A stretch of 64,000 nt of DNA from an uncultured bacterium (GTDB lineage: Bacteria; Omnitrophota; Omnitrophia; Omnitrophales; Aquincolibacteriaceae). The stretch is from contig CAZEFF010000005.1 of NCBI GenBank assembly GCA_964511315.1, forward strand, positions 159 to 64,158, written 5' to 3'. This document shows, one piece after another, positions 4,746-52,352 of this stretch. Under the pieces are notes generated by a model, which did not search any database, was not told the origin of the DNA, and saw nothing but the letters and a program-made list of their open reading frames with translations. Numbering within the stretch: the first letter of the stretch is position 1; each line of letters begins with the position of its first letter. The position numbers were made by a program, and so were the translations under genes.

Positions 4746-5624
4746 CTATGCATGCGGATGAGCGGAATCGTAGACTTCTTTAAGCCGCTTTGTCGTCACA
4801 TGGGTATAAATTTGTGTGGTCGATAAATTTTCGTGACCTAATAACTCCTGCACACTTCTAAGATCAGCGCCGCGGTCAAGCATATGGGTCGCAAAGGAAT
4901 GCCTCAGCATATGCGGAGAAACTTCCTTACGCAAAGCAATGCGGCGCGCGTACTTTAAAATCATTCTCCGGACACTCCGGTCTGTTAACCGTCCGCCTGA
5001 ACGGTTCATATAAAGGGCCCGTTTACCGCCGCCGTCATTTTCTCTGGGCGCTTTCATTGCCATGTATTCCTGAATCGCTTTGGCGGCGATAGCACCGACC
5101 GGAACGATTCTTTCTTTCTTACCTTTTCCCCGAACCCGAACAAGCCCTGAAAAAAAATCAACATCGTCGTGGTTGAGTCCAACTAGCTCGCTGACGCGAA
5201 GCCCGGAACTGTAAAGCGTTTCTAAAATCGCGCGGTCTCTTTTTTCTTCCCAGGTATTTTTAGAAGGGGCCTCAAGCAAATTGGTGATTTCAGTAGGTTC
5301 CAAAAATTTGGGGAGTCTTTTTTCTCTTTTAGGTGTCGCGATCGTCGCGGCGGGGTTTGTCTGCAGCACTTGCTCCCTGACAAGGTATTTAAAAAATGAG
5401 CGCAGGCAGGCTAATTTCCGGGCAATTGTGCTCTTAGAATAAGACCGGTTTTTCAAAACCGCTAAAAAAGAACGGATATCGAGGTAGGTGATATTTGAAA
5501 CGGGTTTCTTTTCTAACGTCCCGGTAAATTCACGGAGATCGATCAAATAATTTTTGACCGTATGGTCAGAAGCATTTTTTTCGTTGGAGAGAAACTGGAG
5601 AAAGCTTTGAGCGTGATTATCCAT
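4746..5624 (-). CDS. Tyrosine site-specific recombinase, XerC/XerD family
   Basis: 292 aa; catalytic-region motifs HMLRHSFATHMLDRGADLRSVQELLGHENLSTTQIYTHV with the terminal Tyr; N-terminal SAM-like domain. Stop overlaps the topA stop region (co-directional). Confidence 0.85.
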   Translation of the reverse strand: MDNHAQSFLQFLSNEKNASDHTVKNYLIDLREFTGTLEKKPVSNITYLDIRSFLAVLKNRSYSKSTIARKLACLRSFFKYLVREQVLQTNPAATIATPKREKRLPKFLEPTEITNLLEAPSKNTWEEKRDRAILETLYSSGLRVSELVGLNHDDVDFFSGLVRVRGKGKKERIVPVGAIAAKAIQEYMAMKAPRENDGGGKRALYMNRSGGRLTDRSVRRMILKYARRIALRKEVSPHMLRHSFATHMLDRGADLRSVQELLGHENLSTTQIYTHVTTKRLKEVYDSAHPHA

Positions 5625-8119
5625 TAGGGACCGAGAACTTCACGGTCCTCTTCCGAAATCTCATCATCTTTGCCCATGCCGCCCGATTCTTGATCCTTGC
5701 TCGGCAGTTTATTGGCAATAAAATCACATTTCGGATAATTTGAGCAGCCGTAAAATGTCCGCCTCTTTTTTGACATGCGTTTGACCAGATCCCCATCGCA
5801 TCCTTCTTTGGAGCACTTTACTCCCGTGGGGATTGAGCGGGTTGTCTTACATTCAGGGAAACCTGAGCAGGCCATAAATTTTCCAAAACGGCCCATTTTA
5901 ATAACCATTTGTTTGCCGCAGGCAGTGCAATTATATTCAGTCGGAATCGCTTCCTGCCGGACATTTTTCATTTCTTCGCGGGCGACTTTAACATTTTCTT
6001 CAAACGGCCCATAAAAATCTTTCAGAACACGGACCCACTGCATTTCTCCGTCTTCGATTTTATCAAGTTCATCTTCCATCAAGGCTGTGAACTGGATATC
6101 GAGAACTTTCGGAAAATGCTGCACGAGAAGATTAACCACTGTTTCCCCCAGCTCGGTCGGCATTAAAGCGCCGCCTTTGCGGGTCACATAATCGCGGTAA
6201 AGAAGCGTATAAATGGTCGGCGCGTAGGTGCTCGGGCGGCCAATCCCCTTTTCTTCAAGGATTTTAACGAGACTGGCATCATTAAAACGCGCGGGCGGCT
6301 TCGTAAAATGCTGATATCCAAAAAGCTCATTAAGCTTCAAAATTTCTCCGGGCGTGAGCTGAGGCAGTTCGCTTTCTTCGCTTTCATCTTCTTCGTCTTT
6401 TCCGTCTTTTTCTTCTTTTGGCGCTTTCGAATCTTTCGCTTCACCAAAAACAATGCCAAATCCGGGAAACAAATTACGCCGGCCGGTCGTTTTGAAAAAA
6501 TATTTTGTTCCCGCAACAATGGAAACAGAAACTTGTTCGTCAATCGCAGGCATCATCTGCGAACCTAAGAATTTACGCCAAATTAAGTCATAGAGCCTAA
6601 ATTCATCTTCATCAAGATAACTTTTAATCGATTCGGGAGTCCTTTTAACCGAGCTCGGGCGAATCGCTTCATGCGCTTCCTGCGCGCCTTTTTTAGATTT
6701 GTAAACAGGCGGTTCTTTAGGCAAATAGTTATCACCGTATTTTTGACGGATATAATCAATTGCTTCGGCCTGCGCCGTAACAGAAATATTCACGGAATCG
6801 GTTCTCATATAGGTAATCAAACCGACACTGCCTTCTTCACCGAGCTCAACACCTTCATATAATTTCTGAGCCACGCGCATTGTTTTCGCGGCGGGAAACC
6901 CGAGACGGTTATACGCCTCCTGCTGAATTTTGCTGGTTGTGTACGGAGCCTGCGGTCTGCGAGAACGCTCTTTCTTATCAACCTTGTCGACTTTAAACGG
7001 TAAGGTCAAAATTTCATCGCGGATTTTTTGAGTTTGCTCGCGGTTTTTAAGCTCTACTTTCTCTTCACCAATTCTTTCAAATTTCGCCAGGAAAATTTTT
7101 CCGGCATTCTGCGGTTTTTCGGATAACAGCTTCGCTTCTAAGGACCAGTATTCCTGCGGAACAAAGGCCCGAATTTCTAGTTCGCGGTCCACAATGAAAC
7201 GCAAAGCGACTGACTGCACGCGCCCGGCACTTAAACCCCGTCCGACTTTCCGCCAAAGTAAGGGGCTTAGTTCATAGCCAACAATACGGTCAAGAATCCG
7301 GCGCGCTTGCTGGGCATTAACAAGGTTCATTTCAATTTCACGGGGATGTTCAAACGCCCCTTTTACCGCTTCTTTGGTAATTTCATTAAATACTACGCGG
7401 GAAATTTCAGTTTCGGGATTATCTTCTCTAAAAATATGCGAGAGATGCCAGCTGATCGCTTCCCCTTCACGGTCAGGATCAGGCGCTAAATAAATGCGGG
7501 TTTTTCCTTTGGCTTGTTTGCGCAAATGCTTAACTGTTTTCGAAGCCTTGCGCATCACAATATATTGCGGTTCGAAATCTTTTTCGATTTCGACACCCAT
7601 TTTACTTCTGGGCAAATCGCGGACATGGCCCATAGAAGCTTCGACAAGATAATCGGGGCCTAAAAATTTATTAATGGTTTTAGCTTTCGCGGGAGATTCA
7701 ACAATCACCAGATTGCTCGGACCTTTAACAGAAGATTCTGAATCTGATTTTTTAGCTTTTTTAGCGCGCGGTTTTTTCGGCGCAGCTTCATCTGAAGATT
7801 CGGCTTTGGCTTTTGGCTTGCGGGCACGCGCTTTTTTCGGCGCTTCAGGCTTGGGTTCATCAGCCGGGAGGACTGCGGGCGCTTCTTCTTCCCCGCTTCC
7901 TCCGCCGACAAAATGAAGGACTTCAATGCGGTCGCCATCTTCAATCAAAACATCTTTGAAGGTTTCCCGGGAGATCACTTGTTCGTTATGTTCAACAACA
8001 ACCGTATTGGGATTGATGGAAAAATGGCTAAGAAGCTCAGAAAGAGAGGCTGCAGAGCCCAAGCTCTTTTCTTGCCCATTGAGATAGATCATGATCTGTT
8101 TTTCGTCAGTAGTCTTCAT
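5624..8119 (-). CDS. topA: DNA topoisomerase I (TopA) with an in-frame N-terminal ThiS-like beta-grasp domain plus a Lys/Ala/Pro-rich linker
   Basis: 831 aa ORF containing TOPRIM (LVIVESPAKAKTINKFLG), topo IA core and three C-terminal Zn-ribbon C4 motifs. The N-terminal about 70 aa (MIYLNGQEKSL...DGDRIEVLHFVGGG) closely resembles ThiS (B. subtilis ThiS ends IEIVHFVGGG), followed by about 60 aa of KAP-rich low complexity. An alternative internal GTG start at 7718 would give a conventional TopA. Confidence 0.85.
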   Translation of the reverse strand: MKTTDEKQIMIYLNGQEKSLGSAASLSELLSHFSINPNTVVVEHNEQVISRETFKDVLIEDGDRIEVLHFVGGGSGEEEAPAVLPADEPKPEAPKKARARKPKAKAESSDEAAPKKPRAKKAKKSDSESSVKGPSNLVIVESPAKAKTINKFLGPDYLVEASMGHVRDLPRSKMGVEIEKDFEPQYIVMRKASKTVKHLRKQAKGKTRIYLAPDPDREGEAISWHLSHIFREDNPETEISRVVFNEITKEAVKGAFEHPREIEMNLVNAQQARRILDRIVGYELSPLLWRKVGRGLSAGRVQSVALRFIVDRELEIRAFVPQEYWSLEAKLLSEKPQNAGKIFLAKFERIGEEKVELKNREQTQKIRDEILTLPFKVDKVDKKERSRRPQAPYTTSKIQQEAYNRLGFPAAKTMRVAQKLYEGVELGEEGSVGLITYMRTDSVNISVTAQAEAIDYIRQKYGDNYLPKEPPVYKSKKGAQEAHEAIRPSSVKRTPESIKSYLDEDEFRLYDLIWRKFLGSQMMPAIDEQVSVSIVAGTKYFFKTTGRRNLFPGFGIVFGEAKDSKAPKEEKDGKDEEDESEESELPQLTPGEILKLNELFGYQHFTKPPARFNDASLVKILEEKGIGRPSTYAPTIYTLLYRDYVTRKGGALMPTELGETVVNLLVQHFPKVLDIQFTALMEDELDKIEDGEMQWVRVLKDFYGPFEENVKVAREEMKNVRQEAIPTEYNCTACGKQMVIKMGRFGKFMACSGFPECKTTRSIPTGVKCSKEGCDGDLVKRMSKKRRTFYGCSNYPKCDFIANKLPSKDQESGGMGKDDEISEEDREVLGP

Positions 8120-9266: not shown

Positions 9267-10373
9267 TTAGAGACGGCTTTTGACTGCTGAATACATTCCT
9301 GCCGAGGTCCGGACAATCCGCCCCTGAATTTCGAGCGTAATCACCCTTTGCGAAAGCATGGAAACGGACCATTGGGACTGTTTTAGTAAATCTTCAAAGC
9401 GCTTGGGCCCTTCCGCCAATATCCCAAGCAGCTCATCCTGATCTAAATGAGCATTTTCTCCGGCCATCAACTCGCTTTTGCTTTCACGGCCCATCAAGGG
9501 CCAAAGGTTCGGCGCGAGTGTTTCAAAAATTTCTTCCGGGGTTTCGACAAGCGCGGCACCTTCTTTAATTAGACCATTTGTTCCGCGCGAAGTAATTTGA
9601 TCAATGGGCCCGGGAATCGCGAAGACTTCTTTCCCTTGCTCCATCGCTTGGTTCGCGGTAATGAGTGAACCGCTTCGTGAATGCGCTTCCACCACCAAAA
9701 CTCCGAGCGATAATCCGGCGATAATCCTGTTGCGCGCGGGAAAATGATAAGCTAAAGGCTCAGCGCCAAAAGCATATTCACTTAGAATCACTCCGCGCTC
9801 AGCAATCGCGTCATAAAGCTTTTGGCTGGATTTTGGATAAACAACATCGATTCCGCATCCGAGTACCGCGATCGTTCGGCCGAAAGAAACTTCAAGCGAA
9901 GCATGATGAGCGACCTGATCAATTCCTTGCGCAAGACCTGAAACAATCGTGATTCCCTTCGCGGCAAGTTCCCGCGAAAACCGTCCGGCTTGCGCGCGCC
10001 CATAAAAACTCGGATGCCTCGTCCCGACAATGGCAAGACTCGCCTCATCGGTTTCAGAAAAACTCCCCTTAGCATAAAGCATCAGCGGCGGATCAATTAA
10101 ATGGGTAAGAGCCTGCGGATAATCCGCGGAAAACAAGGTGAGAAGTTTTACGTCTTTTCTTTCGGCGTTTTCAATTTCGCGGTCCGCGCTAAACTCCACG
10201 GAAAGCTGCGCGTCATTTTCCGCTTTGCCTAAATAATTTTCTATCCTAATTTTTTCCAGCAATTCTAAAGGAGAATGTCCATCTTTTAGAAACTCTACCG
10301 CCTGACGGCTTCTGCCCGCGAACAAACGGTTTAATTGGACTAAGGCTTTTAACTCTTCGTAAGAAAGCCCCAT
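9267..10373 (-). CDS. dprA: DNA processing protein DprA (Smf)
   Basis: 368 aa; Rossmann-like DprA core motifs (AIVGTRHPSFYG, GLAQGIDQVAHHASL, VLGCGIDVVYP) and a C-terminal winged-helix region. Confidence 0.9.
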   Translation of the reverse strand: MGLSYEELKALVQLNRLFAGRSRQAVEFLKDGHSPLELLEKIRIENYLGKAENDAQLSVEFSADREIENAERKDVKLLTLFSADYPQALTHLIDPPLMLYAKGSFSETDEASLAIVGTRHPSFYGRAQAGRFSRELAAKGITIVSGLAQGIDQVAHHASLEVSFGRTIAVLGCGIDVVYPKSSQKLYDAIAERGVILSEYAFGAEPLAYHFPARNRIIAGLSLGVLVVEAHSRSGSLITANQAMEQGKEVFAIPGPIDQITSRGTNGLIKEGAALVETPEEIFETLAPNLWPLMGRESKSELMAGENAHLDQDELLGILAEGPKRFEDLLKQSQWSVSMLSQRVITLEIQGRIVRTSAGMYSAVKSRL

Positions 10374-42404: not shown

Positions 42405-43367
42405 ATGACTAAACCTCTACGAGTTGGCGTGATTGGGATCGGGCACCTGGGAAAAGAGCATGCCCGGATCTACCGCGACCTGCCCGAAACCTCCTTGATT
42501 GGAATTTGTGACACGGACCCTTCAAAGAAGGAAAAGGCTGCTTCTTTAGGCATCCCCTTTTTCGAACGCTTTCAGGATATGATTGGGCAAGTGGACGCCG
42601 TCAGCATCGCGACTCCCACATCCACGCATCATAAAGTCGCAAAAGAATTTCTGAACGCGGGCATTCACACTTTGATTGAAAAACCCATTACCCTGAGGCT
42701 TGAAGAAGCGGATGAGCTGATCGCCCTTGCCAAGAAAAAAAATTGCGCGCTTCAAGTCGGACATATCGAACGGCACAACCCCGGTTTCAAACGGATTGAA
42801 GAAATCGCCAAGAATGTGGGCTTTCTTGAAATTCACCGGCTCGGTCCTTTCACAGGCCGCATTAATGACTGCGGTGTCGTTCTTGATCTCATGATTCATG
42901 ATCTGGATATTGTGCTCGGACTTTTAAAATCCCCTGTCGCCTCGGTTGACGCGGTCGGCATAAGCGTTCTCACTCCTTATGAAGACATCGCGAATGTGCG
43001 TCTGCGTTTTCAAAACGGCGCAGTGGCAAACATTACAGCGTCACGGTTAACGCCCGAGAAGCAAAGAAAAATCCGGATTTTTCAGGAAGACGCTTATATT
43101 TCATTAGACTACGAAGCTCAAAGCGCAAAAATCTTCCGCAAAGAGGGCTCTCAAATTCATCAGGAAGTCATCGAAATCCAAAAATCGGAACCCTTAAAAG
43201 AAGAACTTAAATTTTTTGTCTCAGGCATTCAATCCGGCGCGAGCATCGGTAAACCTGATGAAGCGGCCCGCAACGCGCTTAAAATCGCCCTCCAAATCGT
43301 TGAATCGATCCAATCTCAAAAAACGCCGAACCTGTCGGGATCGGACGTTGGGAAATTCTCTTCTTAA
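42405..43367 (+). CDS. Gfo/Idh/MocA-family NAD(P)-dependent oxidoreductase, translationally coupled to lpxB
   Basis: 320 aa; LRVGVIGIGHLGKEHA Rossmann motif and the EKP motif; its stop overlaps the lpxB ATG by 1 nt (TAATG). Confidence 0.85.
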   Translation: MTKPLRVGVIGIGHLGKEHARIYRDLPETSLIGICDTDPSKKEKAASLGIPFFERFQDMIGQVDAVSIATPTSTHHKVAKEFLNAGIHTLIEKPITLRLEEADELIALAKKKNCALQVGHIERHNPGFKRIEEIAKNVGFLEIHRLGPFTGRINDCGVVLDLMIHDLDIVLGLLKSPVASVDAVGISVLTPYEDIANVRLRFQNGAVANITASRLTPEKQRKIRIFQEDAYISLDYEAQSAKIFRKEGSQIHQEVIEIQKSEPLKEELKFFVSGIQSGASIGKPDEAARNALKIALQIVESIQSQKTPNLSGSDVGKFSS

Positions 43368-44500
43368 TGAAATTTTTCATTATTGCCTGCGAACCCTCTG
43401 GGGATTTGCATGGCGCGCACCTGATCGAAGAAATTAAAAGGCGCTCTCCAGGTTCAGAGTTCCGAGGGCTCGGCGGACCCGCGATGGCCGCGCGGAACGT
43501 TCATCTCTTGGAAGATATGACTAAGTTCTCCGCGCTTGGTCTAGGAGATGTCCTTCGGCAGTATTTAAAATACAGAGAAATCTTTTACCGCGCGTTAAAC
43601 GATGTAGAGACTTGGAAGCCTGATGCCTTAATCCTTATTGATTCGCCCGCATTCAATCTGCGCTTTGCCAAAAAAATCAAAAAACGTTTTCCCGTAATTT
43701 ATTATATTTCCCCGCAGATCTGGGCATGGGGCAGCCGAAGAATTCACACCATCAAGAAAACAGTTTCAAAAATGATTACGATTCTTCCTTTTGAAGTAGA
43801 GGTCTATAAAAAAGTTGATCTGCCGTGTGAGTTTGTCGGGCATCCGCTTCTTGATGAGATCCATTTTACGGAAACCCGGGCGACTTTGCGCGGAAAGCTT
43901 TCTTTAAAGACGGAAGAAACCGCGGTAGGGATTCTTTCGGGATCAAGAGCCAAAGAAGTAAAGCGTATTTTGCCGGACATGCTGGAATCCGCGAGACAGT
44001 TAAAGAAGTTAAAGCCCTCGTGCCGTTTCTTTTTAAGCAGGTCCGCTAATGTTCCTTCAGAAATTTATGACGGCATTCTCGCGCGTTATAAAGATTTACA
44101 GATCGAAACTCCGCAGCTAAGGATGCATGATCTGCTGCTGGCCCTCGACTTTGCTTTCATTACTTCTGGAACCGCGACTCTCGAAGCCACATTAATCGGA
44201 ACTCCCTTCTTTCTTTTTTACCGGGCCAGCTGGTCCACTTACGTTCTCGGGAAAATGCTGATTGAAGTAAAATTTCTTGGTCTTGTGAATCTTCTCGCTT
44301 CAAAAAGTGTTGTTCCGGAATTTATTCAGAATGAAATCCACCCCGAAACCATCGCCCACGAATCAAAAATCCTCCTGGAAACTCCCGCGCTTTATCAGCA
44401 AATGAAAAGTGAATTCGCGGCCGTCAAAATGAAGCTGGGTCAAAGCGGTGCAAGTCAGCGCGCGGCAGCGGCTGTGCTTAATTTCATTGAGAGAAAATAA
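43367..44500 (+). CDS. lpxB: Lipid-A-disaccharide synthase LpxB
   Basis: 377 aa; N-terminus FFIIACEPSGDLHGAHLIEEI and GT19 family architecture. Confidence 0.92.
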   Translation: MKFFIIACEPSGDLHGAHLIEEIKRRSPGSEFRGLGGPAMAARNVHLLEDMTKFSALGLGDVLRQYLKYREIFYRALNDVETWKPDALILIDSPAFNLRFAKKIKKRFPVIYYISPQIWAWGSRRIHTIKKTVSKMITILPFEVEVYKKVDLPCEFVGHPLLDEIHFTETRATLRGKLSLKTEETAVGILSGSRAKEVKRILPDMLESARQLKKLKPSCRFFLSRSANVPSEIYDGILARYKDLQIETPQLRMHDLLLALDFAFITSGTATLEATLIGTPFFLFYRASWSTYVLGKMLIEVKFLGLVNLLASKSVVPEFIQNEIHPETIAHESKILLETPALYQQMKSEFAAVKMKLGQSGASQRAAAAVLNFIERK

Positions 44501-44512
44501 ACCGGAAATCGG

Positions 44513-44896
44513 TTAAGGTTTTTTTGGTGCGGAAGAAGCGTAAGCTTCACCGGGCTGAAGACGGTCCCACGGAAGGCCAGGCTCCACTAGCGATTCGTAG
44601 TTTTGCGGTATAGGCACAGGAAAAGTCAGAATATCATAAACACCCGACAAAGCCCTCCCTACAGCATAGAAGGAGCCCCGCAAAATCCCTGTTCCCCAAG
44701 AAGGAACGGCACTATCCACTTTCTTTTCTTTATGCAGCTCCGCAGAAACTTCTACAGGCGAGAGCGCGATATTTACAAATCCGCGCTGAAGTTTATGCAT
44801 GGGTGTATTTTTTTCAGCCATCTCGGCCGCATAAGAAAAGGGAGAAAAAATAATGAGCGATAAAACTAAGATAGAAACTGCGGATTTGGGGGACAT
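44513..44896 (-). CDS. Hypothetical small secreted protein. Tentatively resembles the exosortase-system-associated TIGR04073-type family, from memory only.
   Basis: 127 aa; signal peptide (ILVLSLIIFSPFSYA). LQRGFVNIALSPVE ... GTGILRGSFYAVGRALSGVYDILTFPVPIP resembles, as I recall it, a small exosortase-associated protein family. Cannot verify without a search. Confidence 0.45.
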   Translation of the reverse strand: MSPKSAVSILVLSLIIFSPFSYAAEMAEKNTPMHKLQRGFVNIALSPVEVSAELHKEKKVDSAVPSWGTGILRGSFYAVGRALSGVYDILTFPVPIPQNYESLVEPGLPWDRLQPGEAYASSAPKKP

Positions 44897-44943
44897 TGTG
44901 CAAATACTCTAACACAAATTAAAACCTGAAACAATCCCCTCCT

Positions 44944-44976
44944 AAAAACACGAAAGGCGGGGCTAATAGCCCCGCC
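44944..44976 (-). terminator. Rho-independent terminator downstream of glnN
   Basis: GC stem GGCGGGGC-taata-GCCCCGCC (44956-44976) followed on the minus strand by UUUCGUGUUUUU. Confidence 0.6.
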
Positions 44977-45007
44977 TTAGCATGCAAATCTGTGCTATTT
45001 AAGAATC

Positions 45008-47107
45008 TTACAGCTTAAAAAGCATATCCGCGTAGCTTGGAACCGGCCATTTATTGGCAGGAATCAGGCTTTCAAGCGCGTCAATATCCGAACGAAGGTC
45101 AGCCTGTGCCGTGAAAACCTTATCCCGGAACGCTTCGGCTTTTTCTTTCGCATCGCTGACCGCTGACGCTTTTTTCTGCGCGGCTTCAAGGGTTGCGAGC
45201 TTCTTGCTGGCAGATTCTAAAAGGTCGCTGATTTTTCCAAGCAATGCCTTTTGGACCGCCGAAGATGCTCCCGCAGTTTTAAGTTTGTTCACGGTTTCAG
45301 CCAATTTCTCCGTGTAGCAAACGACTGCAGGAATATATTGTTTCTTAACCATATCAATAGAAGCAAGGGCTTCGATATTGATTGTCTTAACATAGTACTC
45401 AAGATAAATCTCATACCGTGAGTGAAGCTCTTCTTTTGTCAAAACATGGTATTTTGAAAAAAGCTTTTCAGCATCCGCGTTCGCCATAAAAGCAAGCGCA
45501 TCAACAGTAGAACGGATATTGGGAAGACCGCGCTTCTTGGCTTCTTTCACCCATTCTTCGCTGTAACCGTTGCCATTAAAAATAATGCGGCTGTGCTTAC
45601 TCGCGATTTCACGCGCGATCGCATTGCATTCTTTGTTAATGTCTTTGGCTTTTTCAAGACGTGTCGCGATTTCATCCAGGGCTTCAGCAACGATCGTATT
45701 TAAAACTACGTTCGGGCCGGAAATCGAAGCGGAGGAAGGAACCATGCGGAACTCAAACTTATTTCCGGTAAATGCAAACGGAGATGTGCGGTTGCGGTCC
45801 GTGTTGTCTTTAGGAAGTGAAGGAAGCGTATCCACGCCGATATTGAGGAAGTGCTCGCCTTTGCTGCCGCCCTTCTTGCCTTTTGCTAGAAGTTCTACAA
45901 TCCCGGTTAATTCTTCACCGAGGAAAATAGAGATAATCGCCGGAGGGGCTTCATTAGCACCCAAGCGAAGATCATTTCCGGGATTCGCCGCACCCGCGCG
46001 TAATTTGTCAGAGTGGCGGTCAACCGCTTTGATCACAGCGCAAAGGAACATTAAAAATTGCTCGTTATCATGAGGGGTATGACCCGGTTCTAAAAGGTTA
46101 AGGCCGTCATCGGTCGAAAGAGACCAGTTATTATGCTTACCCGAACCATTCACGCCGGCAAAAGGCTTTTCATGCAGCAGGCAGACAAGCCCGTTACGAA
46201 GAGCGACCTTGCGCATCGTCTCCATCACCAACTGATTGTGGTCAGTCGCGATATTGACCATTGAGAAGATAGGTGCCATTTCAAACTGCGCAGGCGCCAC
46301 TTCATTGTGTTTGGTTTTGGCGGAAACACCCATTTTCCAAAGCTCAATATCTAAATCTTTCATGAACTTGGAAATGCGGTCTTTAATCGCGCCGAAATAT
46401 TGATCTTCAAGTTCCTGTCCTTTAGGAGCAGGCGCGCCGAAAAGCGTACGCCCGGCGACCATGAGGTCAATGCGCTGATCAAAATAGACTTTATCGATCA
46501 GGAAATATTCCTGCTCGGGGCCCATCGTCGGATAAACGCGTGTGGAGGTTTTATTGCCAAGAGCTTTCAAAACGCGCATCGCGTGTTTTGAAACCGCGGC
46601 CATCGAACGAAGAAGAGGGGTTTTCTTATCGAGAGCTTCACCCGTGTACGAGCAAAACGCTGTCGGGATGCAAAGCGTTAAATCGCCGGCTTCATCGGTT
46701 TTCAAAAATGCCGGGGATGTGCAATCCCACGCAGTGTAACCGCGGGCTTCAAACGTTGCACGCAATCCGCCGCTCGGGAAAGAAGAAGCATCCGGCTCAC
46801 CTTGAATCAATTGCTTGCCCGAAAACTCCATAACCGCGCTGCCGTCGGCCATTGGAGCGATAAAAGAATCGTGTTTTTCAGCTGTGGTTCCGGTAAGAGG
46901 TTGGAACCAGTGCGTATAATGTGTAGCGCCTTTTTCAATGGCCCAATCTTTCATCGCGTTGGCCACGACATTAGCGACTTCAAGTGTTAAAGGAGCGCCT
47001 TGATCGATCGTTTTTTTCAAGGCTTTGAAAGTATCCTTGGGCAAACGTTCTTTCATGACCTTCATGTTAAATACGTTACTTCCGAAAACTTCTGTGATGT
47101 CTGCCAT
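45008..47107 (-). CDS. glnN: Glutamine synthetase type III (GlnN)
   Basis: About 700 aa GS-III architecture; N-terminus [13 protein letters not shown]...; conserved GS catalytic-region signatures. Start taken at 47107 (AGGAGA RBS); the ORF-track start at 47176 is less likely. Confidence 0.9.
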
Positions 47108-47200
47108 TTTAAAATCTCCTAATTCTATTGAATTTGGTACTTCTGATTTGAAACTCGACAACAATGGGTACTGCAAAAAGCCGGACTAGCGAGGTGAATA

Positions 47201-47229
47201 AGTCTATTCCTCCCCTTTGGTAAAGTCAA
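47201..47229 (-). promoter_or_regulatory. Candidate sigma-70 promoter inside the glnB-glnN spacer (TTGACT-17 nt-TAGACT)
   Basis: Minus strand: TTGACT (47229-47224), 17-nt spacer, TAGACT (47206-47201). Leaves a about 90-nt leader before glnN. Confidence 0.3.
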
Positions 47230-47365
47230 CGCCCTTTTACCGAAAAAGCAGCCTTTTTAGCCCGGCTAAAACACGCCAAAACCCCATATAAATCAAGGGA
47301 AAATGGCCAAGGCCAATTCTTGATCTTTTGGGGGAAACATCAAAAATGGGGGAAAAATCAGAGAC

Positions 47366-47707
47366 TCAGACGAGTGCCTGTTCTCCCCTCTCACGGGTCC
47401 TAATTCTGATGACTTCAGCGATATCCGAAATAAAAATTTTACCGTCCCCCACCCCGCCTGTAAACGCGGCTTGGAGGATGGCTTGAATAATATTCTCCGC
47501 ATCTTCATCAACGGTAACGATTTCGATCTTTACCTTCGGCATAAACTCTACGCGGTATTGTTCTCCACGCCACTGCTGATAAGCCCCCTTTTGCATACCA
47601 TGGCCTTCAGCCTCAGAAATGGTTATTCCAGGATACCCGGACTCATCCAGGCATTGGCGGACAGATTCAAGCTTTTCGGGTCTAATGATCGCTTCTATTT
47701 TTTTCAT
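47366..47707 (-). CDS. glnB: Nitrogen regulatory protein P-II (GlnB/GlnK family)
   Basis: 113 aa; MKKIEAIIRPEKL, T-loop RGEQYRVEF with conserved Tyr51 equivalent, C-terminal GDGKIFISDIAEVIRIRT. Confidence 0.92.
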   Translation of the reverse strand: MKKIEAIIRPEKLESVRQCLDESGYPGITISEAEGHGMQKGAYQQWRGEQYRVEFMPKVKIEIVTVDEDAENIIQAILQAAFTGGVGDGKIFISDIAEVIRIRTRERGEQALV

Positions 47708-47727
47708 AAATTGGCTCCAGCATAAGT

Positions 47728-47744
47728 ATGCAAAGACTATGCCA
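47728..47744 (-). promoter_or_regulatory. Sigma-54 (-24/-12) promoter upstream of glnB
   Basis: Minus strand reads TGGCAT-agtct-TTGCAT with exact GG-to-GC spacing of the RpoN consensus (TGGCACG-N4-TTGC). It lies about 20 nt upstream of the glnB ATG, with GGAG as SD. A sigma-54 activator gene is immediately upstream. Confidence 0.65.
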
Positions 47745-47844
47745 AAGGGTAAGTCTATAGGGACGCGGAGCCTAAAATGCTAGGGGAAAATATCGGAAGA
47801 AAACAAAAATGTAGCTTAGGAAAAACGAGGTTAATTTAGGCAGT

Positions 47845-49443
47845 TTAACTGGCGATACGGTATTTCTTGAGCTTATACCCCAATATCCGTTCCGTAATTC
47901 CTAGGGACTTTGAAGCTTTTCTCTGATTATTACTGGCTTGCCGCATGGCTTCTTCTATCATCTGTTTTTCGAGCGCCTCAACCGCATCCGGCAATTGCGC
48001 AGCGGCGGGAATAGAGGCCGACATGGCTTCAGGCTTTTCGGCAGCAACGACTTTGTTATTCTTTTTAACACCCGGGATTGGAAAAAGATCGGGGGTTAAA
48101 ATATCCGTCTTACAAAGCACAACTGCCCGCTCAATCGCGTTTTCGAGTTCCCGCACATTGCCCGGCCAGGAATAATTAAGAAGATACTGAATGGCTTCGT
48201 CTGAAAAGTATTTTACATTTTTCTTATTCGCGTTCGCGGCCTTCTGCAGAAAGTGATTGGCCAACGTCGGGATATCTTCATACCGCTCTTTAAGCGGCGG
48301 AAGAAATATGGGAATCACATTAAGGCGGTAATAAAGATCTTCCCGGAAATTCCCGGATTGAATCTCCGTTTCCAAATCCCGATTCGTCGCGGTAATTAAA
48401 CGGATATCCACGCGGATCGTCTGAGTTCCGCCAAGCCTTTCGAATTCTTTTTCCTGAAGCACACGCAGCAATTTCACCTGTGTACTGGCTGGAATGTCCC
48501 CGATTTCATCGAGAAAAAGGGTTCCGCCATGGGCCATTTCAAAACGCCCAATTTTAGTCGTGGCGGCTCCTGTAAAGGCTCCCTTCTCGTAACCAAAAAG
48601 CTCGCTTTCAAGAAGCGTATCTGGAAGGGCAGCGCAGGATACTTTAATGAAAGGCTTGTCCGCGCGGTCACTGGAGTAATGAATCGCGTGAGCCACCATT
48701 TCCTTTCCCGTCCCGCTTTCCCCGCGTAAAATAACCGTCGCGCTGGTTTTACTAATTTGTTCAATCGCGTCGTATACCTCAATAATACGTTTTGATTCGC
48801 CGATCATGTTCGCGGGATGAAATTTTTTCTTAAGCTCCTGTTTTAACAGGATATTTTCATTCTGAAGTTTTTCCTTCTCTTTTTCATAAAGCATATGAAT
48901 TCTGACTGTTTGAGCGACCATGGAACTGATGATCGTCAAAAGACGGATGTCTTCTTCGAACGAAATACTTTCGGAAAAAAGCCGATCGACGCTTAATGCG
49001 CCAATTGTTTTCTGGTCCAGTTTAATTGGAACGCAAATAAAAGATATATTTCCGCGCTTAATGTCTCCCCGCGCGCGCGTCCGGTTCAAAAAGAGCGGCT
49101 CGGTACCGACATTCGGCACAACAATCGGCTCTCCGGCAGCCACCACTTTGCCGGTGATTCCTTCTCCGACTCGGTAGCGCCCGCGCTCAATCTCAGACTT
49201 CGCGAGACCACGGGCCACTTCGATTTCTAATTGATTGGTTGTGCGGTCAAGCAGCGTAAGCGTCCCGCGCTCCATTCCCATCCGCTTATGAAGAATCTCC
49301 ATAATTTGAGACATCACGTATTCAAGATCGGTCGAAGAATTCATCGCTTTTGAAATTTCATAAAGCGTGGTCAGCTCATCAATTTTTCTTTGTGAGTTAG
49401 CAAGCGACTGTTGATTTGAATCTGAATTTTTCTTTAAGGTCAT
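47845..49443 (-). CDS. Sigma-54-dependent transcriptional activator with N-terminal GAF domain and C-terminal Fis-type HTH (NifA/NtrC-family enhancer-binding protein)
   Basis: 532 aa; GAF domain; AAA+ sigma-54 interaction domain with Walker A GESGTGKE and GAFTGA motif; C-terminal HTH ([19 protein letters not shown]). Confidence 0.88.
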
Positions 49444-50267
49444 AAAGACTGTCCATCCGCGACGCCGAATAAAGCGATTCCTTTGGCGTTGGCTTTGCTG
49501 ATAAATTCCTCCTGATCAATAAATAATGTTTTTCCAGCTTCAAACGCGAAGGCTTCGGCTTTCGCGTCAATCAGCTCTTTAAGCGTATTCAGTCCCACAG
49601 CGGGAACATCAAAACGCATATCTTGATTCGGCTTTGCGACCTTTACGACCGTAACTTTATTATTGCCCAAATATGCCCCGCGGCGGATTGCGTGATCGGT
49701 TCCTTCAATCGCCTCAACCGCAAGAATAGCTTTTTTCTTTACGACAACGGTTTGACCAATATCCAGACCCGCGATGGATTTTGCCATTTTAAAACCAAAA
49801 CGGATCTCCTCCATAATTTCTTTTGAGGGCTTTTTTTTGCCGAGCACGCCCGGCCCAGGGAGCGCATATTTCATTAAAAAGGTGGAGTCAAGAAGATCGA
49901 TTCCTTCGCCGTGCAAATAAGAAGCAATGCCGGCCAGCAAGGAATCATCTTTAAAATCCCTTGTCTTCATAATCACTTTTACCATTTCAAAATCAGGGCG
50001 GACGTTTTCCTGAAAAAGTCTGACTTTTTCGATCTTGCCCGCCATAATTGCTTCGTGGACACCCTCAGACTTAAAAAATTTTACCAGCTTTTTAAGCTCT
50101 CCGATTTTCGTCCATCGGAAGGAATCAGCCATTTTCTCAAGCGCCGGCTCAGCCTCTTGCTCAATTCCGCATACAGCGATCCTGTACCCCTGAGCGCGGG
50201 CTTCTTTGGCCGCGAGCACGGGAAAACGTCCGTTGCCGGCAATAATTCCGATTGTTTTATTCATCAT
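49440..50267 (-). CDS. lpxI: UDP-2,3-diacylglucosamine pyrophosphatase LpxI (DUF1009 family)
   Basis: 275 aa; N-terminus TIGIIAGNGRFPVLAAKEARAQG typical of LpxI; located directly after lpxA, as in lpxI-containing organisms; overlaps the next gene by 4 nt. Confidence 0.8.
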   Translation of the reverse strand: MMNKTIGIIAGNGRFPVLAAKEARAQGYRIAVCGIEQEAEPALEKMADSFRWTKIGELKKLVKFFKSEGVHEAIMAGKIEKVRLFQENVRPDFEMVKVIMKTRDFKDDSLLAGIASYLHGEGIDLLDSTFLMKYALPGPGVLGKKKPSKEIMEEIRFGFKMAKSIAGLDIGQTVVVKKKAILAVEAIEGTDHAIRRGAYLGNNKVTVVKVAKPNQDMRFDVPAVGLNTLKELIDAKAEAFAFEAGKTLFIDQEEFISKANAKGIALFGVADGQSL

Positions 50268-50295
50268 ATTTAAGCGAACTTTTAAAATTGAATTT

Positions 50296-51063
50296 TTAGC
50301 CGCAGATACCGCGCGGAGATTCCTGCAAAAAATTAACCAGGATATCTAAAGCCGGCGTTTTGGGGAGCTCCGCTTGAATTTGAGCGATCGCGCTTTTGAG
50401 CGAAAGTCCCGAGCGGAAAATAATCTTGAATGCTTTCTTTAGCGCGGCTTTTTCTTCTTTAGAAACGCCCGCGCGGTTTAATCCAACCGAGTTCAGGCCA
50501 AATGCTTCGGCCGGATGACCATCGACCATCATGTACGGCGGAACATCCTGAACAACTTTAGAGCAGCCTCCGATAATCGCCAGATGTCCAATATGCACAA
50601 ATTGATGAACACCTGTGAGTCCGCCAATAATTGCGGCGTCGTCCACCACAACATGCCCAGCAAGAGTGGCTGAATTCGCCAGAACAGTGTTGTTTTTAAC
50701 AATGCAGTCGTGTGCCACATGGCAGTAAGCCATCAGCAAATTATCATTCCCAATTACAGTTTCTGTCCCCGGCTTGGTACCGGGATTAATCGTGACATAT
50801 TCACGAATTTTATTCCGGCTGCCGATTTTAAGATAACTAATCCCCCCTTCAAATTTTTTGTCTTGGGTACGGCTCCCAATCACAGCACCGGTAAAAATTT
50901 CATTTTCCGCACCAATAATGGTATTACCTTCAATGGTCGCGCGGGGTCCTACAATAGTCCCGGGACCGATTTTTACCGGTCCGGAGATAATCGCGTAGGG
51001 CCCCACCTGAACATCTTCAGCCAGTTCAGCGATCGGATCAACAATCGCTGTCGGATGGATCAT
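50296..51063 (-). CDS. lpxA: UDP-N-acetylglucosamine O-acyltransferase LpxA
   Basis: Start MIHPTAIVDP at 51063 (TGATG overlap with the lpxC/fabZ stop); left-handed beta-helix hexapeptide repeats; C-terminal helical domain. Confidence 0.9.
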   Translation of the reverse strand: MIHPTAIVDPIAELAEDVQVGPYAIISGPVKIGPGTIVGPRATIEGNTIIGAENEIFTGAVIGSRTQDKKFEGGISYLKIGSRNKIREYVTINPGTKPGTETVIGNDNLLMAYCHVAHDCIVKNNTVLANSATLAGHVVVDDAAIIGGLTGVHQFVHIGHLAIIGGCSKVVQDVPPYMMVDGHPAEAFGLNSVGLNRAGVSKEEKAALKKAFKIIFRSGLSLKSAIAQIQAELPKTPALDILVNFLQESPRGICG

Positions 51064-52352
51064 CAACGATCCACGACTGCGAACTTCACTTCCGCTTCGC
51101 ATACAAGCTTTTCTCCCACATAAGCGCGTCCCGAACATTGTCCGGTTTTCGCGCGGATTTTCGTGACCTCGACTTCCATGCGGAGCTCGTCGCCGGGAAG
51201 TACGGGTTGACGGAATTTCGCGAAATCAATGCTCATAAAATAAGCGATTTTGTTCCGATTTTCAGGCTTGCTGAGCATAATCACACCGCCGACTTGCGCC
51301 ATGGCCTCAATAATCAGAACCCCAGGCATCACCGGATGTCCGGGAAAGTGGCCTTGAAAAAAGTAATCATTCATAGTCACTTGTTTGAATCCGACAGCTT
51401 TGACGCCGGGTTCAAAATTCTCAATCCGGTCCACAAATAAAAATGGATAACGGTGCGGAATAATTTTTTGAATAATTTCCGCATTTAAAACAGCCGGCAG
51501 CGGAGAAGGCAGAAGATCATCTTGTTGTTGGCTCATGGCTAGTTTCCTCACAAATTCAAGATTTAAGGCATGCCCGCTTCGCGTAGCGATCACATGCCCT
51601 TTGATAAAACCGCCGACCAAAAACAGATCCCCGAGGAGATCGAGAATTTTATGGCGGCAGGCCTCATCCTCAAAACGAAGCTTGTTTTGGATAGGTTCAT
51701 TTTTTTCAAAAACGAGAGTGTTGGAAAGATTCGCGCCTTGTCCAAAACCCTGGGCTAAAAGAGCCTCGGCTTCCTGCTTCAAGCAAAAAGTCCTAGCCGG
51801 GGCCAGATCCCGTTCGAAAATTTCAGGCAGGATCGTCATGGTCAAAAACTGATCCTTCAAATCTTCATGCCGATAACTGAGCATGTAGGAAATCATCAGA
51901 TTCGGCGCGGGAAGAATGATCAAAGACTGATCACCGCGGTCAATAAAAACAGGCTTCTCCACGGTCAAATAACGCCGTACGGCTTCCTGCTCGAGCAATC
52001 CTACTTTTAAAATTGCTTCAACATACCCCGCCGAGCTTCCATCCATACCCGGAAGCTCCTCGCCGTCAACTTCCACATAAACATTATCAACACCAAGGCC
52101 GTGAAAAACGGCCATCAAGTGTTCGATCGTGCGGATTCGGCCGGCCCCAACTTTAAGGGCCGTCTGGCGCATTTCATCAGATGAAACCTGATCGGAAGCT
52201 GCTTTAACCTTAATCGAAGGGTCAAGATCTACCCTCGAAAAAACAATTCCGGCATTTGGTTCGGCGGGACAAATACGAAGCTTGGCTAGACGCCCCGTGT
52301 GAAGGCCTTGCCCTTCAAACGAAATTGGTTCGCGAAGCGTTCTTTGCTTCAT
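51063..52352 (-). CDS. Bifunctional LpxC-FabZ fusion (UDP-3-O-acyl-GlcNAc deacetylase plus 3-hydroxyacyl-ACP dehydratase)
   Basis: 429 aa; N-terminal LpxC (ISFEGQGLHTGRLAKLRICPAEPNAGIVF, HxxxD Zn site); C-terminal FabZ hot-dog (PHRYPFLFVDRI...HFPGHPVMPGVLIIEAMAQ). Confidence 0.9.
   Translation of the reverse strand: MKQRTLREPISFEGQGLHTGRLAKLRICPAEPNAGIVFSRVDLDPSIKVKAASDQVSSDEMRQTALKVGAGRIRTIEHLMAVFHGLGVDNVYVEVDGEELPGMDGSSAGYVEAILKVGLLEQEAVRRYLTVEKPVFIDRGDQSLIILPAPNLMISYMLSYRHEDLKDQFLTMTILPEIFERDLAPARTFCLKQEAEALLAQGFGQGANLSNTLVFEKNEPIQNKLRFEDEACRHKILDLLGDLFLVGGFIKGHVIATRSGHALNLEFVRKLAMSQQQDDLLPSPLPAVLNAEIIQKIIPHRYPFLFVDRIENFEPGVKAVGFKQVTMNDYFFQGHFPGHPVMPGVLIIEAMAQVGGVIMLSKPENRNKIAYFMSIDFAKFRQPVLPGDELRMEVEVTKIRAKTGQCSGRAYVGEKLVCEAEVKFAVVDR

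Follow-up and report, generated by a model that had tools for sequence, protein, structure and literature searches.

A putative sigma-54-dependent glnB-glnN operon behind the gene of a NifA/Nlh1-type activator in an Omnitrophota bacterium

We analyzed a stretch of 64,000 nucleotides from contig CAZEFF010000005.1 of an uncultured Omnitrophota bacterium (the window), in which the genes for a P-II protein (glnB) and a type III glutamine synthetase (GSIII, glnN) follow the gene of an enhancer-binding protein on the minus strand. With a probability of about 0.75, we interpret glnB-glnN as a sigma-54-dependent nitrogen-assimilation operon, driven by the NifA/Nlh1-type activator encoded just upstream. 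The features on which this interpretation is based are the following:

47845..49443, minus strand: enhancer-binding protein of 532 amino acids (Pfam domains GAF, Sigma54_activat, AAA_lid_14 and HTH_8)
47800..47815, minus strand: candidate enhancer (upstream activating sequence, UAS) GCTACATTTTTGTTTT, with the core ACA-N4-TGT at 47812..47803, recognized by a site matrix and by enrichment
47744..47729, minus strand: sigma-54 -24/-12 element TGGCATAGTCTTTGCA, with no other exact match to the pattern in the 64 kb of the window
47715..47718, minus strand: GGAG ribosome-binding site, read from the sequence, 7 nt ahead of the ATG of glnB
47366..47707, minus strand: P-II protein (GlnB/GlnK-like) of 113 amino acids (Pfam P-II PF00543, 1.4e-30)
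47201..47229, minus strand: sigma-70-like promoter TTGACT-N17-TAGACT (9/12 match) in the spacer between glnB and the GSIII gene
45008..47107, minus strand: GSIII (glnN) of 699 amino acids, counted from the ATG at 47107, assigned by Pfam
44954..44978, minus strand: intrinsic terminator, composed of a stem of 11 bp (8 of them GC pairs) and a T run, which closes the glnB-glnN unit

Upstream of the P-II gene, the minus strand reads accctt TGGCAT agtct TTGCAT acttatgctggagccaattt ATG. The TGGCAT-N5-TTGCAT sequence occupies 47744..47728 and is separated from the ATG at 47707 by 20 nt (20-21 nt, depending on where the motif is taken to end). The GG and GC dinucleotides are spaced by 10 nt and are located at -25/-24 and -13/-12, respectively, and 10 of the 11 specified bases agree with TGGCAC-N5-TTGCA. 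A preliminary description of this DNA, made from the sequence alone, had proposed a near-perfect RpoN -24/-12 element 20 nt before the P-II gene; the sequence was confirmed, and the motif is shared by the orthologous loci described below. Standard sigma-54 geometry predicts a transcription start at about 47718, which is the first G of the GGAG sequence, so that this ribosome-binding site would lie at the extreme 5' end of the transcript. The pattern TGGCAYN5TTGCW was matched once on both strands of the window, compared with 0.22 matches expected from shuffles, and at least one match was present in 18 of 100 shuffles of the window. Taken alone, this chance statistic gives the single-window match modest to weak support. 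The window contains no second site with at least 10/11 agreement with the sigma-54 consensus and no sigma-54 motif near its lpx genes, and a search of the spacer between glnB and the GSIII gene yielded no further motif of this type.

The 137-nt spacer between the activator gene and glnB was also scanned for sigma-70-like promoters, and none was found. A role as a sigma-70 -10 element was considered for a TAGACT sequence before glnB and was rejected, because this sequence lacks a -35 element and the spacer scan had revealed no sigma-70-like promoter. The 9-mer ATAGACTTA occurs twice on the minus strand, at 47750-47758, just upstream of the sigma-54 motif, and at 47199-47207. At the putative promoter of the GSIII gene, the latter copy forms the -10-like element, and the former is not accompanied by a -35 element; the duplication may be due to chance.

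Conservation of the promoter was analyzed in 18 non-redundant loci of the Omnitrophota clade, which were collected by a metagenome contig scan restricted to the GAF domain and by exact look-ups. An earlier scan of genome contigs, with the full-length activator alignment and generic AAA+ motifs, had retrieved unrelated activators of many phyla but not a single orthologue from Omnitrophota. The closest homologues of the activator are 65-75% identical, and those with an organism name stem mostly from Candidatus Omnitrophica/Omnitrophota metagenome-assembled genomes (MAGs). In all 18 loci, a sigma-54 motif with at least 9/11 matches to TGGCAC-N5-TTGCA precedes the first nitrogen gene. The motif usually lies 77-175 nt past the activator stop codon, whichever nitrogen gene comes next, and its position and orientation are kept in 18 of approximately 21 Omnitrophota-clade loci. 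T-26, C-23, A-22 and T-14 are present in 18/18 loci and T-15 in 17/18, an apparent invariance for which the scan criteria partly account. Elsewhere in the same loci, five matches of equal quality were found in 353 kb-strand, corresponding to a background of 0.014 per kb-strand. The activators of the 18 loci are only about 60-75% identical to the window protein, and the motif is nonetheless kept. Compared with the background, conservation at 18 loci excludes chance, and this comparative evidence indicates that the sigma-54 motif is functional. As a negative control, loci with an activator of 49-57% identity were inspected, and these mostly lack a downstream sigma-54 motif.

The gene content behind the conserved promoter is not uniform. 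The activator gene is followed by glnB and the GSIII gene in the window and in loci L161 and L082, by the GSIII gene alone in L081, L097, L099 and L100, and by a type I glutamine synthetase (GSI) gene in L085 and L089. The order amtB-glnB-GSI was found in L090/092, L093, L162, L165, L167 and L169, and probably also applies to L164, where the third gene is cut by the contig end. In L083, amtB-glnB lies behind an inserted permease gene. The promoter and the palindromes described next directly follow the activator gene in 16 of the 18 loci.

In the relatives, the stretch from the activator stop codon to the -24 element contains a recurring palindrome with the consensus CTACAAAATTGTAG / CCTACAAWATTGTAGG and the core ACA-N4-TGT. 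Two copies are the usual number, spaced by 18 or about 31 bp, and their centers lie 52-135 nt upstream of the motif. The core was counted 27 times in 3.2 kb of promoter-upstream sequence versus 23 times in the other 173 kb, which represents a 63-fold enrichment. A matrix was constructed from 26 sites of 16 other loci, with the window excluded, and among the approximately 64,000 positions of the window its best score, 13.6 bits, fell on 47800-47815. The center of this site is located 63 nt upstream of the -24 element and at about -89 relative to the predicted start. The 12-mer CTACATTTTTGT (47814..47803) is also an enhancer site in L164 and L167. A search for inverted repeats in the 137-nt spacer of the window found none; the window site is symmetrical only in ACA/TGT and can therefore be recognized only through comparison with other loci. 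The preliminary description had suggested scanning this region for palindromes of the activator, and the ACA-N4-TGT site is the outcome. We infer that ACA-N4-TGT is the binding site of the activator.

In L100, the spacer between activator gene and enhancer is swollen to about 450 nt by a unit of about 95 nt (containing aaaaaatcaaaggttggcagggctggtcctgattaccttcaatttataattaatgagaatcagggcc, 6548-6960), which is repeated in tandem approximately three times and resembles a small repeated insertion element. The same locus carries a second perfect sigma-54 motif, TGGCACGTCTCTTGCA, past the GSIII gene (9403-9480), ahead of an open reading frame (ORF) with a hydrophobic, signal-peptide-like N-terminus; at this second promoter, the ACA-N4-TGT-like sites ATTTTTGT and ACAAAATTGT are located downstream, at about +25 to +60, and not upstream. 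In L005 (7572-11888), from a Treponema sp. MAG, a gene for a 41%-identical activator comes first, and behind it lie, in this order, the palindrome CCTAC-N6-GTAGG, a sigma-54 motif, an amtB-like ORF, a P-II gene and a GSIII-like ORF, whereby the P-II gene was assigned by tblastn and the amtB-like and GSIII-like ORFs by eye. This gene order suggests that the module type also exists in Spirochaetota, beyond Omnitrophota.

The protein encoded upstream of the promoter has the complete architecture of a sigma-54 activator. A GAF domain (amino acids 39-179) is followed by a helical linker, the Sigma54_activat domain (213-379; PF00158, 2.4e-73), AAA_lid_14 and HTH_8 (488-528; 4.6e-10). The GAFTGA motif is encoded at 48582..48565 and is, like Walker A and Walker B (DEIGD), invariant in 25 orthologues. 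The full domain set and the catalytic motifs thus bear out the earlier proposal that this gene encodes an activator with GAF, AAA+ (GAFTGA) and helix-turn-helix domains. A protein scan of the window, which covered 57 ORFs of at least 110 amino acids, revealed no second GAFTGA protein and no histidine kinase, receiver domain, glnD or rpoN.

Source records of the homologues designate these proteins as 'nif-specific transcriptional activator NifA' or 'Nif-specific regulatory protein'. The activator scores 566.2 bits with the NifA equivalog model TIGR01817, above the cut-off of 528.85, and 355 with the NtrC model TIGR01818, below the cut-off of 558.6. Among solved structures, the best full-length match is NifA (9qq6_C, E 1e-115). 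The GAF domain is matched best by Aquifex Nlh1 (4g3k_A, E 3.4e-32, residues 4-177 of the GAF query), and the match to the GAF domain of NifA (8jrc) is weaker (1e-22). Based on these similarities, the activator is a member of the NifA/Nlh1 family. No nif-like ORF was recognized downstream of the activator in any examined Omnitrophota-clade orthologous locus, and TGT-N10-ACA was absent from all three clade promoters scanned for it (L097, L099 and L100). In a control locus encoding an alphaproteobacterial NifA (L011), TGT-N10-ACA occurs twice and is followed by a nifB-like ORF, the latter noted by eye. The lack of downstream nif genes, the lack of TGT-N10-ACA in three promoters and a GAF domain closest to that of Nlh1 argue against a nif function. 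Judged by these three findings, the activator is very probably a regulator of nitrogen assimilation, and the name NifA is a mis-annotation of its function.

The two genes behind the promoter fit a nitrogen-assimilation operon. The P-II protein retains Tyr51 (GEQY) and the GDGKIF sequence of the B-loop, and in its translation Trp replaces Tyr at position 46; its score is below both the GlnB and the GlnK equivalog cut-offs. The preliminary description had placed a type III glutamine synthetase downstream of glnB, and three GSIII domains were identified in that protein by Pfam (GSIII_N PF12437, 6e-82; Gln-synt_C PF00120; Gln-synt_C-ter PF18318, 8e-43). Its GSIII orthologues are 74-82% identical and are encoded behind the same promoter type. 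Where the GSIII gene directly follows the sigma-54 promoter (L097 5099-5140; L099 from 6739; L100 from ~7098), the protein carries a Cys-rich N-terminal extension (MCECNSCSCGSEK / MCECGSCRCGKGK); the window GSIII has no such extension.

No terminator-like hairpin was found between the activator gene and glnB, or in the 258 nt between glnB and the GSIII gene; the terminator past the GSIII gene is the only strong hairpin. Because no terminator precedes the GSIII gene, the glnB transcript probably runs on into it. In addition, alignment with L161 and L081 places counterparts (TTGACA-N17/18-TAAATT or TAAACT) at the position of the sigma-70-like element in this spacer, and these matches suggest that the GSIII gene probably has a second, sigma-70-type promoter of its own. 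Folding of the spacer gave z = -0.9 and thus no evidence of a structured leader. An Rfam search of 44000-51000 with E up to 1 returned chance-level matches only and no glutamine riboswitch.

The activator gene is embedded in a lipid A gene cluster, the relevant members of which are:

49440..50267, minus strand: lpxI, the stop codon of which overlaps the activator start codon (ATGA, 49443-49440)
50296-51138, minus strand: lpxA
51063-52352, minus strand: lpxC/fabZ fusion

The four nucleotide overlap of lpxI and the activator gene is also present in L162, L164, L167 and L169, and the activator gene follows lpxA-lpxI in the loci that reach far enough upstream. The activator and nitrogen genes form a cassette in the setting bamA-ompH-lpxC/fabZ-lpxA-lpxI-[activator-nitrogen genes]-lpxB, which was found in the window (43367-52352) as well as in L161, L162, L165 and L167. 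lpxB is located on the opposite strand, past the terminator. The content of the cassette differs between genomes; the flanks are constant. The activator gene lacks a promoter of its own, and the overlap of its start with the lpxI stop indicates that it is part of the lipid A operon. Co-transcription of the activator gene with lpxC/fabZ-lpxA-lpxI is likely, as is translational coupling. UDP-GlcNAc, from which the lipid A pathway starts, derives its amino group from glutamine. The coupling to lpxI might tie the glutamine supply to outer-membrane synthesis, with activator dosage following envelope biogenesis and activator activity following nitrogen; we regard this as a rather unlikely speculation.

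The following mechanism is proposed for the glnB-glnN operon. The activator would be produced constitutively from the last gene of the bamA-ompH-lpxC/fabZ-lpxA-lpxI operon, for which the gene overlap is observed and co-transcription is presumed. Its HTH_8 domain would bind the conserved ACA-N4-TGT site centered about 89 nt upstream of the start. By analogy to the protein family, a signal of nitrogen limitation at the GAF domain would cause the GAF/coiled-coil dimer to no longer hold the AAA+ domains apart. As in NifA proteins, this signal would most likely be 2-oxoglutarate, contact with P-II, or both. The AAA+ ring would then form, its GAFTGA loop would contact sigma-54, and the TGGCAT-N5-TTGCA promoter would be opened at the expense of ATP, as expected for members of this family. 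Transcription would proceed from about 47718 through glnB, and probably into the GSIII gene, to the hairpin at 44978-44954, and the sigma-70-like promoter in the spacer may supply basal expression of GSIII. The operon also encodes P-II, for which reason the circuit would probably include feedback.

Several observations weigh against this interpretation. The predicted leader of glnB, about 11 nt, is unusually short, and L161, a syntenic locus from assembly GCA_023247035.1, has 71 nt between motif and ATG and a predicted leader of about 61 nt. The window has a single enhancer site, compared with two in most relatives, and the next-best score in its spacer is -3.7 bits. Adjacency of activator gene and promoter is not absolute, as a permease gene lies between the activator gene and the enhancer-promoter pair in L083 and L162. 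Finally, the window contains no rpoN, and a search for the RpoN box gave no match either there or in any of the 169 fetched loci; a literature search on rpoN in Omnitrophota returned nothing useful. In L082 (1993-2024), the nearest relative with glnB as the first gene, the gap between motif and glnB ATG is just 13 nt, which implies a leader of about 3 nt; the transcript would be essentially leaderless, and no ribosome-binding site is visible. With leaders of about 61 nt in L161 and about 3 nt in L082, the short leader is a lineage-specific prediction.

Three alternative explanations were weighed. The sigma-54 promoter might be real and be activated by another enhancer-binding protein, for example NtrC, with the GAF activator controlling other targets such as envelope genes. 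Such a division of roles would agree with the clade-wide conservation of the overlap with lpxI, and with the location of the enhancer-promoter pair in L083 and L162, where it accompanies amtB at a distance of 2 kb from the activator gene. We consider it unlikely, because promoter and palindromes directly follow the activator gene in the great majority of loci (16/18) irrespective of which nitrogen genes come next, because the activator belongs to a family of nitrogen regulators, and because the scanned window ORFs contain no other GAFTGA protein, kinase or receiver and the window's lpx genes have no sigma-54 motif nearby. A quite improbable alternative would have ACA-N4-TGT bound by a separate nitrogen regulator, either a repressor or a co-activator, with something else as the true enhancer or the activator acting from solution. 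The distances of the sites from the -24 element and their frequent pairing at 18 or about 31 bp are typical enhancer geometry, and ACA-N4-TGT sites occur only together with this activator clade, with the similar CCTAC-N6-GTAGG in Treponema L005. It could be objected that the palindrome is unlike the NifA site TGT-N10-ACA although the protein scores as NifA, and that similar sites are downstream rather than upstream of the second sigma-54 promoter of L100; for the latter point, enhancers are known to act from either side of a promoter.

The remaining alternative is that the sigma-54 motif is a chance match and that glnB is expressed by read-through from the lpx-activator genes or from an unrecognized promoter. 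The window by itself leaves some room for this explanation, given the 0.22 exact matches expected by chance in 64 kb, the absence of a terminator between the activator gene and glnB, and the short predicted leader. The comparison of loci does not: the motif is kept in 18 of them despite activator identities of about 60-75% and a background of 0.014 per kb-strand, and it co-occurs with a conserved palindrome. From this sequence comparison, a chance match appears strongly disfavored.

The module was originally described as departing from the enterobacterial NtrBC/glnA model, and this holds true: the activator has a GAF domain and not a receiver domain, no kinase was found in the scanned window ORFs, and the enzyme is a GSIII. 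Yet the architecture is not new, and this kind of module is already known, with Aquifex Nlh1 and the Leptospira EbpA-RpoN-amtB system as precedents. The activator shares with Nlh1 of Aquifex aeolicus the GAF-AAA+-HTH architecture and the helical linker between GAF and AAA+ domains, in addition to the GAF similarity described above. Work by Studholme et al. from 2000 reportedly showed that the glnBA operon of Aquifex has a sigma-N promoter and that the NifA-like protein binds about 100 bp upstream. The Omnitrophota system differs from that of Nlh1 in its phylum, in its target, which is glnB with a type III and not a type I synthetase, and in the location of the activator gene within a lipid A operon; ACA-N4-TGT is the enhancer sequence proposed here from the Omnitrophota loci. 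Nlh1 is a sigma-54 activator repressed by its GAF domain via a coiled-coil linker, and it was speculated to control nitrogen assimilation in a host that does not fix nitrogen (review, PMC9866876).

With NifA, the activator has in common the TIGR01817 score, the GAF sensor, the GAFTGA motif and the best full-length structure match, whereas its predicted targets are glnB, amtB and genes for glutamine synthetases. The GAF domain of NifA interacts with GlnB (PMC3854208) and binds 2-oxoglutarate, according to Little and Dixon 2003 as cited in PMC9866876. In Leptospira, EbpA, which has GAF domains, and RpoN activate amtB and are needed under nitrogen limitation (PMC12655853). That system likewise combines a GAF-type activator without a kinase partner, sigma-54 and ammonium-assimilation genes (PMC12655853). 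EbpA differs in that it is FhlA-like, has two GAF domains, also targets lipoprotein genes and was tested experimentally. The NtrBC/glnAp2 system resembles the present one in having a sigma-54 promoter and an upstream enhancer at a glutamine synthetase gene, and a tandem arrangement like glnAp1/p2 is possible, given TTGACT-N17-TAGACT in the window and its equivalent in L081. The present system differs from NtrBC in the GAF sensor that takes the place of a receiver, in the absence of NtrB from the scanned ORFs, in the GSIII target and in the presence of P-II in the same operon.

The general picture of sigma-54 regulation is unchanged by these results. They add one more phylum in which nitrogen control would be exerted by a GAF-type sigma-54 activator instead of NtrBC, and they provide the Omnitrophota, which are known almost wholly from MAGs, with a testable regulatory model that specifies an activator, an enhancer sequence, a promoter and target genes. 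Of local interest are the proposed enhancer sequence, the embedding of the activator gene in a lipid A operon and the systematic mis-annotation as NifA. In this phylum, proteins with the name 'nif-specific activator NifA' almost certainly regulate ammonium assimilation, so that nitrogen fixation deduced from the name NifA in metagenomes would be misleading.

The other genes of the window have housekeeping functions, i.e. in lipid A synthesis and in the synthesis of aromatic and branched-chain amino acids, and they include topA, uvrB, valS, dnaB and ribosomal protein genes. The topoisomerase I ORF (5624-8119, minus strand, 831 amino acids from the first start) has an N-terminal ThiS/MoaD-like domain (PF02597, amino acids 13-74) before the Toprim domain, which represents either a fusion or an over-extended start. 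At 421-2376 on the minus strand, a single ORF of 651 amino acids joins a late-acyltransferase domain for lipid A (Lip_A_acyltrans) to an Elm1-like domain (PF06258).

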